This document shows, piece after piece, positions 4,478 through 52,102 of a stretch of 64,000 bases of DNA (position 1 is the stretch's first letter; each line of letters begins with the position of its first letter). Source of the DNA: an uncultured Alphaproteobacteria bacterium (GTDB taxonomy: Bacteria > Pseudomonadota > Alphaproteobacteria > CAAHEQ01 > UBA3637); the NCBI GenBank assembly GCA_949292205.1, contig CASEYR010000006.1, positions 32,016 through 96,015 on the forward strand. The letters run 5' to 3'. The notes beneath the pieces were generated by a model. The model ran no database searches, was not told where the DNA came from, and saw nothing but the letters and a program-made list of their open reading frames with translations. Made by a program: the position numbers and the translations under genes.

Positions 4478-5842
4478 ATGAAAACAACACCGAGGACTCT
4501 GTCCGGCTTTATGGAGCTTTTGCCGGCAGAACAGTTGGTCTTTAATCAGATACTTGATGTTATTCGCGATTCGTTCGAATCGTATGGCTTCGTCCCATTG
4601 GATACTCCCGTCCTGGAGTATGCCGATGTTTTGTTGGCTAAGGCCGGTGGTGAAACCGAAAAGCAAATCTATCGCTTTCAAAAGGGTGATTCCGATTTGT
4701 GTATGCGCTTTGATTTGACGGTGCCTTTGTCGCGCTATGTCGCTCAACATCAAAACGATATTACTTTCCCGTTTCGGCGCTATCAAATCGCAAAGTCTTA
4801 TCGAGGAGAGAGACCTCAGAAAGGACGCTTCCGTGAGTTTTATCAGGCTGATATTGACATCATCGGCAATGAACGGCTATCAATTATTCACGATGCCGAA
4901 GTTCCCGCTATCATGTATGGTATATTACGGCGCTTGGGACTGAATCGTTTCCGAATCAAAATGAATAACCGAAAATTGTTAAACGGATTTTATCAGCCCT
5001 TAGGACTGACCAAAAAGGCTACCGATATCTTACGCATTATTGACAAGTTTGATAAAATCGGAGTTGATGCCGTTCAGGATTGCTTGGTGGATTTGAGCCT
5101 GTCCGATGATCAAATACAATCAGTATTGTCTTTTGTTCAAACATCGGGAACGACGGATCAGGTATTATCTTATTTAAAGGGCCTGAACATCCAAAACGAA
5201 TCGTTTCAAACCGCTATTTCTGAATTGGAAACGGTTGCAAATGCATTAAAAACGCTGGGTGTTCCCGAAACGCACTATCAAATTGATTTAAAAATTACAC
5301 GCGGTCTGGATTATTATACCGGAACGGTTTATGAAACGTATGTTGAGGGTCATCCCAATTGGGGTGCTATTTGCTCTGGCGGACGCTACGATAATTTGGC
5401 CGAAAATTACACCGATCGTAAAATGCCGGGGATTGGTATGAGCTTGGGTGTGACACGCTTCTTTGATCTATTGAGAGGTGAAGGACTTTTGAATTTTGGT
5501 AAAATGACTTCTGCCGAAGTTCTGGTGTTGCCGATGGATGAGGATATGTCCTATGCTTGTCAAGTTGCAACCGTATTGCGACAAGGGGGTATTAAAACGG
5601 AGTTATACGGGGCAACGACTAAATTTAAAAATAAAATGAACTACGCCAATAAAATCGGCGTTCCTTTCGTTGCCATTATCGGAGAAGATGAGCGACAAAA
5701 TAATCTTGTTTCTTTGAAGGATATGGTTTCCGGAAATCAAACAAGTATTCCACTGTCCGATGTGGTCAAGTTTGTTTTTCAAAAACGATCCGAACAGCCG
5801 GAGCAACCGATTATTTTGGAAGTATCTCGTACTTCTAAATAG
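4478..5842 (+). CDS. hisS: histidine--tRNA ligase (class II, type-2 HisRS)
   Basis: 454 aa; class II motif 2 region FRRYQIAKSYRGERPQKGRFREFYQADIDIIG; C-terminal anticodon-binding domain present, so not HisZ; SD AAAGGA upstream. Confidence 0.78.
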   Translation: MKTTPRTLSGFMELLPAEQLVFNQILDVIRDSFESYGFVPLDTPVLEYADVLLAKAGGETEKQIYRFQKGDSDLCMRFDLTVPLSRYVAQHQNDITFPFRRYQIAKSYRGERPQKGRFREFYQADIDIIGNERLSIIHDAEVPAIMYGILRRLGLNRFRIKMNNRKLLNGFYQPLGLTKKATDILRIIDKFDKIGVDAVQDCLVDLSLSDDQIQSVLSFVQTSGTTDQVLSYLKGLNIQNESFQTAISELETVANALKTLGVPETHYQIDLKITRGLDYYTGTVYETYVEGHPNWGAICSGGRYDNLAENYTDRKMPGIGMSLGVTRFFDLLRGEGLLNFGKMTSAEVLVLPMDEDMSYACQVATVLRQGGIKTELYGATTKFKNKMNYANKIGVPFVAIIGEDERQNNLVSLKDMVSGNQTSIPLSDVVKFVFQKRSEQPEQPIILEVSRTSK

Positions 5843-5908: not shown

Positions 5909-7372
5909 TTAGATGTGGATGAGTCCGCGTGCAAAAGCGTAAATGGCAATTAAGGCAACGGCCACAATTGCAACGGCTAAAGCTTTTTCCGGTTCGGAAA
6001 ATAACGGCTCTTTAGAGGGGGTATCTTGTCTTGCCCAAATATAAAACGGGATACCTATTGCGATAAAGATAGCGGCCATCAGTAAGTAGCTGAAGCCGGC
6101 TGCATACAGCAACCAAATCGCATAAACCGTTCCTAATATTCCGGTTGTTAACGCTGTAAAGCGACTGACGCCGGTTGTTTTGGGTAATTCATTATCCTCG
6201 CATAATTTCCACAAAAATAAGCAGGACATCAGATAGGCCGGTAAGACCATAACTCCGGTAATCGATAACATGGTGTTCCACGCATTATTCGCAAAATAAA
6301 CCAAAATCATAGCCGCTTGCATTAAACCACTGGTAATCCAAAGAGATATATTGGGCGAGCCTGCTTTATTTTCGTATCCGAAAATTTTTGGAAATGTCCC
6401 ATTCTTGGCCATTGCATAGGGCATCTCTGCAACAATCATTGTCCAGGATAGCCAGCTGGCTAAAATGGCAATAACAACGCCGATGTTCATCAACCAAGAG
6501 CCCCAGGGACCAACAACAAGCTCTAAAACACCTGCTGTTGACGGATTGGCTACCGCTGCCATTTGAACACGTGTCATAAATCCAAAGGGCAATACAGATA
6601 GCAAAACATAAATGGCTAAACACCCTAAATAACCAATTAAAGTGGCTCGCCCAACATAGGATTGTTTTTCGGCGCGTCCCGATAAAACAACGGCTCCTTC
6701 AATACCAATGAACGCCCACAGTGTAACCAGCATCGTGTTTTTAACTTGGCTTCCTAAATCTCCTAATTTGTCGGTCGACAGCTTACCCCAGAAATCAAAA
6801 TCAAATTTATCCATATTGAAAACGGCTGTCATAATGATGATAAAGAGGAGTAGAGGAACGATTTTTGCAATTGTGACCACGAGGTTTATCATGGTCGCTT
6901 GCTTAACGCCTCTTAACACTAAGAAGTTAAAAAACCAAATTAAAAATGATCCGCCGATGACGGAATATAGATTGTTTCCTCCGGTAAAAACGCCGGGGAA
7001 GAAATAGTCCAGAGCATCCATTGTGATGACTGCGTAGCCGACGTTTCCGAAAATTTGACACAGCCAATAACTCCAACCGATATTAAATCCCATGTAGGGT
7101 CCGAATCCCGAACGTGCATACATATAAATACCCGATGTTAAATCGGGGCGTGCATCTGATAAAATCCGAAATGTGTTTGCTATAAAATACATCCCAAAGC
7201 CCGTTACTAACCAAGCTAGGATGACGGCTCCGACCGCTGCACTTTGTGCCATGTTTTGCGGAAGTGAAAAAATACCGCCACCGATCATGGAACTGACGAC
7301 GATACCGGCTAAACCGAAAATGCCTAATTTACCCGCAGGGCTCATTCCTTGTTGCTTATTTTTTTGAACCAT
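5909..7372 (-). CDS. APC-family basic amino acid antiporter (arginine:agmatine or arginine:ornithine exchanger, AaxC/ArcD/AdiC-like)
   Basis: 487 aa, about 12 TM segments; N-terminal GLAGIVVSSMIGGGIFSLPQNMA... closely resembles ArcD/AdiC-type exchangers; lies immediately downstream of the pyruvoyl ArgDC gene on the same strand. Confidence 0.72.
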   Translation of the reverse strand: MVQKNKQQGMSPAGKLGIFGLAGIVVSSMIGGGIFSLPQNMAQSAAVGAVILAWLVTGFGMYFIANTFRILSDARPDLTSGIYMYARSGFGPYMGFNIGWSYWLCQIFGNVGYAVITMDALDYFFPGVFTGGNNLYSVIGGSFLIWFFNFLVLRGVKQATMINLVVTIAKIVPLLLFIIIMTAVFNMDKFDFDFWGKLSTDKLGDLGSQVKNTMLVTLWAFIGIEGAVVLSGRAEKQSYVGRATLIGYLGCLAIYVLLSVLPFGFMTRVQMAAVANPSTAGVLELVVGPWGSWLMNIGVVIAILASWLSWTMIVAEMPYAMAKNGTFPKIFGYENKAGSPNISLWITSGLMQAAMILVYFANNAWNTMLSITGVMVLPAYLMSCLFLWKLCEDNELPKTTGVSRFTALTTGILGTVYAIWLLYAAGFSYLLMAAIFIAIGIPFYIWARQDTPSKEPLFSEPEKALAVAIVAVALIAIYAFARGLIHI

Positions 7373-11676: not shown

Positions 11677-11716
11677 GGTTCTGAACTAAACTTGAATCAA
11701 TCCGACTGAATATAAA

Positions 11717-11741
11717 AAATACCCCGACCATGGGGTATTTG
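11717..11741 (-). terminator. rho-independent terminator downstream of tRNA-Ser
   Basis: On the minus strand: ATACCCC-atggtc-GGGGTAT followed by TTTTTATATT. Confidence 0.5.
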
Positions 11742-11743
11742 AA

Positions 11744-11834
11744 TGGCGGATGGGGCGAGATTCGAACTCGCGTTAGGCTTTAGACCTAAACACACTTTCC
11801 AGGCGTGCGCCTTCAACCACTCGGCCACCCATCC
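11744..11834 (-). tRNA. tRNA-Ser (anticodon GGA)
   Basis: Reverse complement folds as a class II tRNA: acceptor GGATGGG/CCCATCC, long variable arm, T-loop GTTCGAATC, anticodon loop CUGGAAA, encoded CCA. Confidence 0.9.
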
Positions 11835-11908
11835 AGTAAAGACAAAAACCTTATACTCTATTTTTTTCTGAAAATCAAGTCTTTTCTTTTGGGGTATATT
11901 AAAAAAAG

Positions 11909-12055
11909 GGACATTAAATTGTTACGCTTTTACCCTTACCATAAATCAAAAATCATTACAAGTCTTTTTTAAGATTTTTTTTATTTTTTGAGTTGCTTTT
12001 TAGATGATTACTTATTTCTTTATGACATCAACTTTAGCGTAACAATTTAATGTCC
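11909..12055. repeat. perfect 19-bp inverted repeats (GGACATTAAATTGTTACGC at 11909-11927; reverse complement at 12037-12055) bracketing a 109-bp AT-rich segment upstream of the Cys-rich pilin gene
   Basis: Exact reverse-complement match read directly from the sequence. Confidence 0.8.
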
Positions 12056-12067
12056 GTTAAATTGTTA
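12040..12067. promoter_or_regulatory. palindrome TAACAATTTAA-tgtccg-TTAAATTGTTA (11-bp arms) overlapping the right inverted repeat and the putative -10, 18 nt before the SD
   Basis: Exact palindrome; the same 11-mer also occurs at 11914-11924, so three copies within 160 bp. Confidence 0.45.
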
Positions 12068-12085
12068 TAGAAGAGGAGTCGATTA

Positions 12086-14149
12086 ATGAAAAGCAAATAC
12101 CATATGACATCTATTGATGTAGCGGAAGAGTCAGCAGAGTTAAATAAAAGATATACCCGAATAAAGAGAAGTAAAGAGAATGAATCGGGGCGAAGTATGG
12201 TCGAAATGCTGGGCGTTCTGGCCTTGATGGGTGTGTTGGCTATTGCTGGTGTTATGGGGTATCGATGGGCTATGGATAAGTATCGGGCAACGGATACCAT
12301 CAATGAAGTAAATCGGCGGGCAATTGTTCATTCCACTCAACTGATGTCATCAGGCGTTTTAAATGCTTCCGAGTTTCCCCTGGAAACACGTCAAGGATAT
12401 GGCACAGAGGCAACTCTGCTGACCGGAAATCAAACGGGTTATTTTGAAATTTCTCTGACAGACGTTCCTGGTGGGGTGTGTCGCGAGATATTAAAATCCG
12501 ACTGGGTATGGCCGGTCATGAAGAAAGCCAACGGAATAGACTATACAGGCAATGCTGATATTTGTCGAACCGATACAGGCGTGCGAATGGTATTTGTATT
12601 TTCCAGTGATTTAAGCGGAAAGTCAGCAGACTTCAGACAACGTTGTCAAAAAGATGATGATTGTCGGAGTGCTTGCGGTGTCTGTGACAACGGATATTGC
12701 AGCAGTCAATGTCGAGAGGGAGAGACATGTGGACGAACCTATGATAATTCGGAATTTTATGCGTGTTGTTCAAACGATAAAGTCCTGAACGGCGTATGCT
12801 GTCCGACGATTATGAACGGACAATGTTGTGCCAGTATCGGCAGTTGTTGTCCTGCGGATAAGCCGTTAATGGACAAGGACGGGAACTGTCATACCTGTGA
12901 TGAGGAAGGCTCTGTCAATGTTACGGGCAATACGGTGATGTGTGGTATTTGCGACGGGCAGGACGGCCGAACGAAACGGGAGTTAAACGGAAATACATGT
13001 GTCTTGCCATGTCCTCCGGAAACACCTTTGATGGATAGAGATGGTAACTGTCATCGGTGTGATGAAGATTCTATTCAAATCACCGTTGCTAATAAATCAA
13101 AGTGTGATGTTTGTCCGGATAGAAATTATTGGGGACCAGGTGCACGATGTGAATTACCTTGTGGCATAAATTCATTTTTAGGAACTTACTCTAATTTGCC
13201 TTGTAATCCCTGTACGACAACAGACGCTATTAATATCACATATCGTTCCGCTGAAGAATGTATAACAAAATGTGATGGTAGCTCTCCAGATCGACCAAAG
13301 CGAATAGATATTTCGGCTGGGGCAGGATTGGCAACACACTTTTGTGCTTTGGCTTCTTGTCCTAAGGATAAACCGATACGTTCATCAAGTGGAACATGTT
13401 ATGCCTGTGGCGTTCGAACTGTAAATGTAACAGGATTTGAGCAAACATGTTTTTCATGTCCGGGCTATGTTTTAAGAGGGAAAATATGTACGAACACAGG
13501 GTGTCCAACAGGATCTCAAGCTAATGAAGAAGGGCGTTGTGTGTGTGATGACTCGACACAGGTGCAGGATTCAAGTGGAAATTGTTATCCCTGTGATTCG
13601 GGTACGATTATTGATGTAACGGGAGTTTCCGAAAACTGTGATGTGTGTCAAGGGAGGCGTGTTACCAAGGTTTTTTACCCAAGTGTTACAAAATGTATGA
13701 AGCCGTGTGCAGATGATGAGTTCTATACTGGTGAGGGATGTCGCAAATGTAATGATACGGCTGTCATAAGTATGTATGATGATGCTGAGTATTGTTTATA
13801 CTGTGATGGGCAAGAGGGACGTGCACAACGCGTATGCGTCCCAGGGGCGTGTCATGCTTGTGCGTTGGTGTGCTCTTCGGGTATGACGATGGCAGGAGAC
13901 GGCACGTGTCATACATGTGATGAAGTGGAACCGTTTAGTGTGTCAAACGGTATGACAGCCAGCTGTAATACTTTTTGTGCCGGAAAGAGATATCTGGTCG
14001 GAACGATGTGTTATAAGTGTCCGCCGGATACATACAGTCCCGATGCAAAACAATGTATTCAATGTCCTTATAACAATATGGAAACGCTAACACGAGAAGC
14101 TGATTGTCAGGCTTGTGGTGGTTCGTGGGACGGAACAACGTGTCAATAA
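12086..14149 (+). CDS. modular type IV pilin-like protein: class III (prepilin) signal peptide plus pilin-like head domain plus about 500-aa cysteine-rich tandem-repeat module
   Basis: AGAGGAG SD 7 nt upstream; 35-aa leader ending ...ENESG, then RSMVE with Glu at +5 and a 20-residue hydrophobic helix; Cys132/Cys160 fit a pilin D-region loop; residues 187-687 carry about 66 Cys with at least 5 repeats of about 35 aa (P-x-[DE]-[KT]-P-[LI]-x-D-x-D-G-N-C-H-x-C-D-E-x6-V-T-G-x4-C-x-x-C). Confidence 0.65.
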   Translation: MKSKYHMTSIDVAEESAELNKRYTRIKRSKENESGRSMVEMLGVLALMGVLAIAGVMGYRWAMDKYRATDTINEVNRRAIVHSTQLMSSGVLNASEFPLETRQGYGTEATLLTGNQTGYFEISLTDVPGGVCREILKSDWVWPVMKKANGIDYTGNADICRTDTGVRMVFVFSSDLSGKSADFRQRCQKDDDCRSACGVCDNGYCSSQCREGETCGRTYDNSEFYACCSNDKVLNGVCCPTIMNGQCCASIGSCCPADKPLMDKDGNCHTCDEEGSVNVTGNTVMCGICDGQDGRTKRELNGNTCVLPCPPETPLMDRDGNCHRCDEDSIQITVANKSKCDVCPDRNYWGPGARCELPCGINSFLGTYSNLPCNPCTTTDAINITYRSAEECITKCDGSSPDRPKRIDISAGAGLATHFCALASCPKDKPIRSSSGTCYACGVRTVNVTGFEQTCFSCPGYVLRGKICTNTGCPTGSQANEEGRCVCDDSTQVQDSSGNCYPCDSGTIIDVTGVSENCDVCQGRRVTKVFYPSVTKCMKPCADDEFYTGEGCRKCNDTAVISMYDDAEYCLYCDGQEGRAQRVCVPGACHACALVCSSGMTMAGDGTCHTCDEVEPFSVSNGMTASCNTFCAGKRYLVGTMCYKCPPDTYSPDAKQCIQCPYNNMETLTREADCQACGGSWDGTTCQ

Positions 14150-51073: not shown

Positions 51074-52102
51074 TTAAGCATCCGATAAAGTATCATCTCC
51101 GACCATCATCTGCTGAGACAAATCCTTTGCATCATTTCGGATGGCTGTTTCAATTTCCGCAGCCAATTCCGGATGAGCTTTCAAATAAGCCTTAGCTGTC
51201 TCACGTCCCTGTCCGATTCGCTCCCCTTTACAAGAGAACCAAGCCCCAGCTTTTTCAACAATACCGGCCTTTACCCCCAAATCCAACAATTCACCGGCTT
51301 TAGAAATACCCTCACCGTATAAGATATCAAAATCAACAGTTTTAAACGGTGGAGCCACTTTATTTTTAACAACCTTAACCCGAGTTTGACTTCCGATAGT
51401 ATCTTCCCGATCCTTGATAGCGCCCACACGCCGAATATCCAAGCGGACGGAGGCATAGAACTTTAAAGCATTTCCACCGGTTGTTGTTTCAGGGTTACCG
51501 AACATCACGCCGATTTTCATACGGATCTGGTTAATAAAGATGACCAACGTATTTGCACGAGCGACAGAGGCTGTTATTTTGCGAAGTGCTTGACTCATTA
51601 AGCGAGCTTGCAACCCCATATGCGAATCTCCCATTTCGCCTTCCAACTCTGCTTTTGGGACCAAAGCAGCAACCGAATCAACGACCAACACATCAATAGT
51701 TCCCGATCGAACTAAAGTATCTGCAATTTCCAATGCCTGCTCTCCCGTATCCGGTTGCGAGATCAACAAATCATTAATATTCACGCCCAATTTACCTGCA
51801 TACGACGGATCCAACGCATGCTCGGCATCGATATAAGCGCATACCCCGCCTTTTTTCTGAGCTTCTGCAACAACATGCAAAGCCAGAGTTGTTTTTCCCG
51901 AACTTTCCGGTCCATATATCTCAACAATACGACCTCTAGGTAATCCACCGATACCCAACGCCATATCCAATCCCAGCGAACCGGTTGAAATAGCGGGAAT
52001 CTCAACGGCATTACCTTGTTGCCCCAACCGCATAATAGACCCTTTACCAAAAGCTCGTTCAATTTGGCTGAGAGCCGCTTCTAACGCTTTATCTTTTTCC
52101 AT
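51074..52102 (-). CDS. recA: recombinase RecA
   Basis: 342 aa; Walker [11 protein letters not shown]1/L2 loops; classic RecA N-terminus [22 protein letters not shown]. Confidence 0.95.

Follow-up and report, generated by a model that had tools for sequence, protein, structure and literature searches.

The 64,000-nucleotide stretch analysed here (64 kb; below, the window), taken from contig CASEYR010000006.1 of an uncultured Alphaproteobacteria bacterium, contains a short AT-rich segment bracketed by inverted repeats. The segment lies between a tRNA-Ser gene and a gene (12086-14149, + strand) for a 687-aa Cys-rich protein with a pilin-like N-terminus. This raises the question whether the element is a promoter that can be inverted, a pair of binding sites for a regulator, or the relic of a mobile element, the three options named in the initial annotation. 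The evidence from related loci favours the first of them. From its sequence and from this comparison, the element is probably a phase-variable invertible promoter, a mini-inverton of the Hin/Gin or Mpi type, and the gene for the invertase that flips it would lie beyond the window. The type of switch is known, and the window element is a probable further member of it in uncultured gut Alphaproteobacteria.

The 19-mer GGACATTAAATTGTTACGC occurs at 11909-11927 on the plus strand and at 12037-12055 on the minus strand, exactly as first annotated, and these are its only copies in the window with up to three mismatches allowed (expected 0.01). The perfect repeat is longer than had been described. 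Its left arm GGACATTAAATTGTTACGCT (11909-11928, + strand; repeat search and shuffles) and right arm (12036-12055, - strand; repeat search) measure 20 bp and leave 107 nt between them, not 19 bp and 109 nt, and an imperfect extension covers 34 nt at 82%. None of 1000 dinucleotide shuffles of the 450-nt upstream region matched this repeat, the best shuffle reaching 15 versus 20. The element thus has the basic make-up of an inverton, a short segment (interior 11929-12035, AT-rich, no strand assigned) bounded by inverted repeats.

The palindrome TAACAATTTAA-tgtccg-TTAAATTGTTA at 12040-12067 (11-6-11) is likewise exact, and the 11-mer TTAAATTGTTA is present in exactly three copies, at 11914-11924 (forward), 12040-12050 (reverse) and 12057-12067 (forward), where it had been reported. 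The last copy had been placed 18 nt before the Shine-Dalgarno (SD) sequence; this is its distance from the ATG (12086), and it ends 5 nt before the SD (GAGGAG, 12073-12078, + strand), which precedes the ATG by 7 nt. The three copies, though real, are better read not as an array but as the two inner half-sites and the right outer half-site of two hix-like sites, of which the left outer half-site has diverged. Both recombination-type sites have a 13-2-13 layout and no assigned strand. The left, gene-distal site (11897-11924, direct reading) comprises the degenerate outer half TATTAAAAAAAGG (11897-11909), the core GA (11910-11911) and the inner half CATTAAATTGTTA (11912-11924). The right, gene-proximal site (12040-12067, direct reading and palindrome search) comprises the inner half TAACAATTTAATG (12040-12052), the core TC (12053-12054) and the outer half CGTTAAATTGTTA (12055-12067). 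Since GA is the reverse complement of TC, the two sites are mutually inverted; the distance between the centres of these 28-bp sites is 143 bp. Dyad-symmetric half-sites, a 2-bp core and inverted cores, the features of Hin/Gin-type sites, are all present, and three of the four half-sites match TAACAATTTAAYG. Moreover, about 14 paralogs in other metagenome-assembled genomes (MAGs) have left sites (TGTAAAAAAAGG-GA-C) whose sequence is almost that of the left stretch AAAAAAAGG-GA-C of the window, among them those at the related loci L058 and L044.

Two other readings of these sites were dropped. A dif/Xer-like 11-6-11 arrangement fits the relatives less well than 13-2-13, which was preferred because the 2-bp asymmetry is the sole break in the otherwise perfect dyads of L008, L011, L012, L043 and L053. 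A CtrA box (TTAA-N7-TTAA) was discarded as the spacing is N6 in the proximal site of the window and the distal site of L004, and the proximal site of L004 has no TTAA.

A candidate split promoter spans 12022-12051 on the plus strand and combines, as described initially, the -35-like ATGACA (12022-12027) in the interior of the segment with the -10-like TTTAAT (12046-12051) in the right arm, separated by 18 nt. It scores 10/12 and is the sole plus-strand match of at least 9/12 in 11835-12090 in a relaxed hexamer scan. Inversion of the segment in silico left no gene-facing promoter match, in agreement with the earlier proposal that inversion would remove the -35, and ATGACA-18-TTTAAT then pointed to the tRNA-Ser side. 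Because the only gene-facing promoter-like match is present as assembled and lost upon in-silico inversion, the window is predicted to have been assembled in the ON state. In the mechanism that we propose, a small serine invertase encoded in trans would bind both 28-bp sites, cut at GA/TC and invert the 143 bp between the cores. The -35 would ride on the segment, while the -10, being part of the arm, would read the same in both states. In the assembled orientation, the two elements would be joined facing the pilin-like gene (ON); after flipping, the gene would lose its -35 and the promoter would point to the tRNA-Ser side (OFF). The junctions as assembled (state A; the slash marks the junction) read ...AAAGGGACATTAAATTGTTACGCT/TTTACCCTTACC and ...ACATCAACTTT/AGCGTAACAATTTAATGTCC, and those predicted for the flipped state B read ...TTGTTACGCT/AAAGTTGATGTCATAAAG and ...ATGGTAAGGGTAAA/AGCGTAACAATTT, the second also given as ...TTTATGGTAAGGGTAAA/AGCGTAACAATTT.

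Three smaller observations concern the same region. In the predicted OFF state, transcription from the promoter would run parallel to that of tRNA-Ser. T-tracts in the interior start at offsets 36, 46, 55 and 68, a roughly 10-nt phasing that may, speculatively, confer intrinsic curvature and help to close a short loop; across the family, this phasing signal is weak. A GANTC motif (GAGTC, 12076-12080), the sequence that CcrM methylates in Alphaproteobacteria, covers the last three nucleotides of the SD (12076-12078) and the first two of the spacer, which may well be chance.

The window was compared with about 90 related loci of uncultured Alphaproteobacteria from gut and rumen. Full-length proteins were too divergent for a search for relatives, and an alignment of the conserved N-terminus was used instead; a scan for this motif in species-representative genomes returned more than 581 loci, with at least 5-8 paralogs in several MAGs. 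Upstream of the homologous genes lie pairs of dyad-symmetric sites, each about 28 bp long; their centres are 122-143 bp apart, the DNA between them is AT-rich, and their sequences differ from locus to locus. Such paired, mutually inverted sites precede the SD in L004/L006, L007, L008/L009, L011 and L012, and a full two-half-site palindrome like the right site of the window lies just before the SD in L004, L006, L007, L011 and L012. The proximal site abuts the SD in L011 and precedes it by 5-20 nt in the window and L004/L007. In L004/L006 the distal site is TAACAATTTAATG-TT-CATTAAAATGTTA and the proximal site TAACAAAAAAAGG-AA-CATTTTTTTGTTA; the corresponding pairs are TAACGAAAAAAGG-GT-CATTAAAATGTTA and TAAAAATTAAATG-AC-CATTAAATTTTTA in L011, and ATATTCATAAAGG-AC-CCTTTAT and ATAAAGG-GT-CCTTTATGAATAT in L008, the arms of which form a 22-bp perfect repeat around a 106-nt interior. 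In L007, the distal site CTGGACAAAAACG-TA-CGTTTTTGTCCAG is matched by a near-identical second copy in the proximal position. An inverted repeat with a score of at least 12 and a 90-160-nt spacer was present in 24 of the 83 upstream regions with enough sequence, compared to 1.6 expected from shuffles. Within single MAGs, for example the SIG53 MAG (SUUT01) and RGIG7750, the AAAAGG-GA/TA-C site type is common to many paralogs. Furthermore, wherever the 2-bp cores are asymmetric (window, L004, L008, L011, L012), they are reverse complements of each other, a relation that a serine invertase needs and a symmetric DNA-binding dimer does not.

Some of the relatives carry signs of inversion itself. In the paralogs L016 and L022 of one MAG, the flanks are collinear, beginning about 45 nt before the left site and continuing into the gene, and the 103-nt interior aligns solely as reverse complement. 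TTGACA-17-TAAAAA abuts the right site and faces the gene in L022, whereas in L016 it faces away. The pair L043/L053 likewise combines collinear flanks with a reverse-complemented interior (109 nt, 38-nt arms), and one member has a clear gene-facing promoter. In L008/L009, in-silico inversion created a gene-facing 12/12 match, TTGACA-18-TATAAT, that spans the junction and lies 36 nt before the ATG; its -35 comes from the segment and its -10 from the fixed flank. Chance is hard to hold responsible for a perfect consensus formed exactly at this junction, and the split of the promoter into -35 and -10 that would underlie switching in the window thus recurs in relatives. In a survey of in-silico inversions, 18 loci gained a better gene-facing promoter, 5 were better as assembled and 12 tied, so that, judged by these predictions, most relatives look OFF as assembled.

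Assemblies also tend to break at these elements. Within 330 nt upstream of pilin-like genes, 12 contig ends were counted versus 2.0 expected, and among contigs longer than 10 kb the numbers were 8 versus 0.65. Five contigs begin 1-5 nt before the core of the gene-proximal site, which is where two orientation states would diverge. Two independent assemblies of the same strain, reached through the neighbouring genes and with identical flanking proteins (ELM1-like, LonC-like), both break at the window element: the Logan contig (L001, run ERR10610576) ends at 11957 and the European Nucleotide Archive (ENA) k87 contig (L002, ERZ17292904) at 12061. A further contig from these assemblies, L003, ends at about window position 12210, inside the gene, perhaps because paralogs share a conserved N-terminal segment. 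A scan of the Joint Genome Institute (JGI) metagenomes for flipped copies, using the junction GGGACGTATAAATGCAAC common among the relatives, gave only three chance matches in unrelated DNA.

A candidate recombinase is encoded elsewhere in the clade. In L073 and L077 (2/80 loci), a protein of about 196 aa with Resolvase and HTH_7 domains is encoded directly upstream of, and divergently from, the pilin-like gene, and the repeat pair lies between the two genes. Its best match in the PDB is the Gin DNA invertase. Homologs occur widely in this clade, the best 120 listed having 73-94% identity, and some sources name them invertase or 'Pin-like'; 7,996 of the 8,000 scored candidates in the homolog search pass E<=1e-20. 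One homolog, P0156, was found at the same locus in eight assemblies (L092-L099), where a segment of about 100 nt separates the invertase gene from a divergent YadA-anchor adhesin gene and is flanked by ACAAAAACC-AA-GGTT and AACC-TT-GGTTTAAA (e.g. L092 3700-4000). L092 and L098 have this segment in one orientation, L093-L097 and L099 in the other; it is a direct same-locus inversion polymorphism across samples. Here too the segment carries a -35 (TTGACT), and a -10-like TACCAT lies beyond its end towards the adhesin gene. The same invertase cassette occurs in another MAG (L104, 4818-4951; AACC-AA-GGTTAA and TTAACC-TT-GGTT, 110 nt between), beside an HTH_3 gene and a glycosyltransferase operon, not an adhesin gene. 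Many invertase homologs lie on very short contigs (0.7-2 kb), which points to assembly breaks to either side of the invertase gene as well.

The organisation of the window element recalls Hin/hix of Salmonella flagellar phase variation and Gin/gix of phage Mu, both systems of small serine DNA invertases in which a site consists of two inverted half-sites around a 2-bp core, the sites are inverted relative to each other and inversion re-orients a promoter; the resemblance extends to the candidate enzyme of the clade. The Gin segment is about 3 kb long. At about 0.14 kb, the window segment is also much shorter than that of Hin, which measures about 1 kb (PMC3798978); published hix sites are 26 bp (PMC3798978, PMC2427008). 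Further differences are that no invertase gene lies inside or beside the window segment, that the half-sites are 13 nt long with G-GA-C cores instead of ACC-AA-GGT, and that the segment carries only part of a promoter, the -35. No Fis-type enhancer is evident at the window element by inspection, and Fis is not to be expected in Alphaproteobacteria. The invertase-adjacent AAAACC-AA-GGTTTT looks hix-like when compared with the hixL sequence.

Among other known switches, the Mpi segments of Bacteroides are about 170-190 bp, and segments of the window type are shorter. Mpi repeats contain the motif ARACGTWCGT, which AAACGTACGT in L007 would fit. PMC4747536, citing Coyne 2003, reports that Mpi inverts 13 regions in Bacteroides fragilis, seven of them polysaccharide (PS) promoters; the many short unlinked promoter segments, the one serine recombinase acting in trans and the combinatorial surface variation of a gut commensal that characterise the Mpi system resemble the situation proposed here. 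The phylum is a different one, however, the targets are genes of a pilin-like protein family instead of capsular polysaccharide operons, and a single invertase acting in trans is putative for this family. With fimS of E. coli, switched by FimB/FimE, the window element would share the short invertible promoter element, its inverted-repeat bounds and the ON/OFF control of a fimbrial or pilus subunit gene. fimS is 314 bp long with 9-bp repeats and is inverted by tyrosine recombinases encoded adjacent to it, helped by IHF and Lrp, whereas the site anatomy in the window (asymmetric 2-bp core, dyad half-sites) and the enzymes of the clade point to a serine invertase. Inverton surveys (PhaseFinder; DeepInverton, PMC11602134) describe promoters flanked by inverted repeats, often before surface-structure genes of gut bacteria, and the window element is probably of the same general class. 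Our literature search found the Alphaproteobacteria named in passing in papers that speak of invertons and no paper tying invertons to the alphaproteobacterial pilin-like family.

Several observations weigh against an invertible promoter in the window. The left outer half-site is degenerate (about 7/13 matches). The promoter call is weak, as 13% of shuffles give an equal match and a stricter scan of 11680-12200 listed no promoter. The contig ends at 11957 and 12061 are off the positions that two simple orientations would predict (11928 and 12036). Both flipped paralog pairs have long arms (38-39 nt) on which RecA could also recombine, and the orientation of related interiors is the same in 97 pairs and opposite in 2, with one orientation shared by the roughly 14 related paralogs. 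The window contains no serine-recombinase motif or tblastn match and no Resolvase-family open reading frame (ORF), and ten ORFs of tyrosine-recombinase size in it all encode housekeeping proteins; the earlier statement that it holds no recombinase thus stands as far as these checks, which were not exhaustive, go. Pilin-type cores (AAAGG-NN-CCTTT; G-GA-C in the window) differ from the invertase-adjacent AAACC-AA-GGTTT, and for this reason the clade invertase is only a candidate for the pilin-type sites. Finally, some loci have symmetric cores (TA in L007, AT in L016 and L070), and in L013 (2820-2930), L017, L018 and L020 of one MAG, sites of the type CAAAAAAAGG-AT-CCTTTTTTT are about 75 bp apart, a spacing that, with the symmetric core, seems awkward for inversion and to suit plain protein binding better.

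A number of these points would agree with a former inverton that has decayed or become locked, or with a repeat that flips rarely through RecA-dependent homologous recombination, so that the architecture was inherited and no meaningful switching takes place here: the degenerate half-site, the window devoid of an invertase, the long arms of both paralog flips and the uniform orientation all fit, and RecA is encoded in the window at 51074-52102. We nevertheless regard this as unlikely, in view of three half-sites that are intact with cores matching in inverted orientation, the breaks of both same-strain assemblies at the element, an invertase family that is very widespread in the clade, and an arm identity of 20/20 in a fast-diverging intergenic region, which suggests ongoing homogenisation or selection. 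About as unlikely is a pair of operators, to which a dimeric regulator would bind, at one site over the promoter and 5' untranslated region (UTR) and at the other about 140 bp upstream, repressing or activating without rearrangement and perhaps by looping. The spacings of 122, 128, 131-132 and 143 bp are out of helical phase with one another, and no regulator gene is conserved beside the loci, two of which have an adjacent invertase gene instead. Nor would operators account for the two paralog pairs in which the interior is reverse-complemented precisely between the site boundaries, for the L008/L009 promoter that becomes perfect only after in-silico inversion, for contigs that break at site cores, or for asymmetric cores that are always reverse complements. 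What remains of the operator-plus-auxiliary-site option of the initial annotation is the dyad symmetry of sites bracketing the promoter, with the proximal one at or just before the SD across loci, together with the fully symmetric cores, the L013-type spacing, the prevailing single orientation and the window without recombinase. The locked and the operator explanations each retain a small, similar share of probability because of the weak promoter call, the off-position breaks, the long arms, the uniform orientation, the core mismatch and the L013 spacing.

The two remaining explanations are far less probable. Size and terminal inverted repeats superficially fit a relic resembling a miniature inverted-repeat transposable element (MITE), a 147-bp non-autonomous transposon inserted by the nearby tRNA-Ser gene, as had also been suggested. 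This reading was rejected and is extremely improbable: the window holds a single pair of the repeat, no target-site duplication is present at 11909 or 12055, the element is located 5' of the tRNA, and in many paralogs repeat pairs of unrelated sequence occupy an equivalent place with respect to the SD. Moreover, an exact scan of 185,579 species-representative genomes and the JGI metagenome collection did not find the 20-mer, so that the source genome and any dispersed copies are not in these collections, which argues against a MITE and yields no second copy of the locus. An effect at the RNA level is very unlikely as well. The 11-6-11 palindrome, which ends 5 nt before the SD, would then be a 5' UTR hairpin modulating translation or mRNA stability, with the distal copy incidental, and the paralog at L010 does have a different 15-6-15 hairpin in the same place. 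A transcript from the predicted -10 (12046-12051), however, would begin within the palindrome and so lack part of the stem, and nothing in this reading explains why an inverted copy lies distally, why a spacing of about 130 bp is conserved, why interiors are flipped or why an invertase gene is linked.

If the invertible promoter is accepted as the preferred reading, the same switch before many paralogs of a surface-protein family could generate combinatorial surface variation. Possible, though we put it forward only tentatively, is a clade-wide system in which one or a few highly conserved Gin-like invertases flip many split-promoter mini-invertons of about 120-145 bp, each before one Cys-rich pilin-like gene, the window being one switch in the ON state. 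Each segment may carry the -35 of its switch, with the -10 located within the fixed site or past it. Instead of a Fis-type enhancer, segments as short as these would probably require a bending protein or DNA that is intrinsically curved. Were this true, uncultured gut Alphaproteobacteria would vary a large surface-protein family by promoter inversion, a strategy best documented in Bacteroides, and the Cys-rich pilin-like family could be tested as phase-variable surface or adhesin fibres. Such switches would break metagenome assemblies at predictable points, and read sets already at hand would allow their ON and OFF states to be scored. With its very short segment and split promoter, the element would also be a useful test case for serine invertase synapsis on tight loops. 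The window element would be of more interest as an entry point to this system than alone.

The product of the controlled gene starts with a 36-aa leader, followed by G/RSMVEMLGVLA with Arg at +1 and Glu at +5, and otherwise consists of Cys-rich repeats. The N-terminus matches prepilin families only below threshold (N_methyl E=0.06, 13.4 bits versus a cutoff of 21.2; pseudopilin XpsH E=0.033), and the whole protein matched no Pfam or NCBIfam family. Of the Cys-rich pilin annotated initially, the Cys-richness and a prepilin-like N-terminus therefore stand; the protein is pilin-like only, not a type IV pilin by family assignment. Homologs were found solely in MAGs named 'Alphaproteobacteria bacterium' from human and animal guts including rumen, and an identity look-up of the exact 687-aa sequence found no record. 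In the same-strain ENA contig (L002), one CAG unit of the leader-coding region is missing at window positions 12126-12131 (gtcagag instead of gtcagcagag), giving a protein of 686 aa instead of 687.

The window as a whole is ordinary chromosome (LptG, an ELM1-like gene, dnaN-recF-gyrB, rpoBC, recA), and the neighbours of the element are the ELM1-like gene and tRNA-Ser(GGA) (11744-11834, - strand). The tRNA gene adjoins the element as noted before, with a gap of 74 nt to the left arm, not 75, and by eye has a promoter of its own (TTGATT-17-TATAAG, 11878-11850) and a terminator. Family members downstream of a tRNA gene include those of the window, L004 (tRNA at 5613-5689), L049 (2552-2628), L053 (2488-2573) and L033 (2501-2577), and the tRNAs near family members vary (Ser, His, Arg, Tyr, Pro). 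A tRNA within a few hundred nt upstream is found in a minority of family loci; this adjacency is not general, and it was dropped as a defining feature.

Some relatives show other arrangements. In L010 (5890-5985, paralog P0007), no repeat pair is present, and a TTGACA-type promoter is separated from the SD by a (CA)15 tract and, after it, the perfect 15-6-15 hairpin; this family member may undergo slipped-strand phase variation or be regulated through its 5' UTR. L091 (1-361) has an 86-nt perfect inverted repeat spanning the site, the 5' UTR, the ATG and the first codons, with a 115-nt interior; its left copy runs 37 nt further to the contig end with three synonymous differences. Either two twin genes start divergently here from a shared switch, or mixed orientations or strains produced a chimeric contig. 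Upstream of the switch in L008 and L009, GC-richer units (...CCGTCATTCTGAG...GAAGAATCT...) recur in inverted orientation in the 5' coding region of the same gene (L008 5580-5690 versus 6041-6098; L009 2283-2377 and 2671-2727), with arms of up to 44 nt at 86%. The identical protein P0005 occurs in two MAGs in different upstream contexts, ClpX/Lon in one and CTP synthase in the other.

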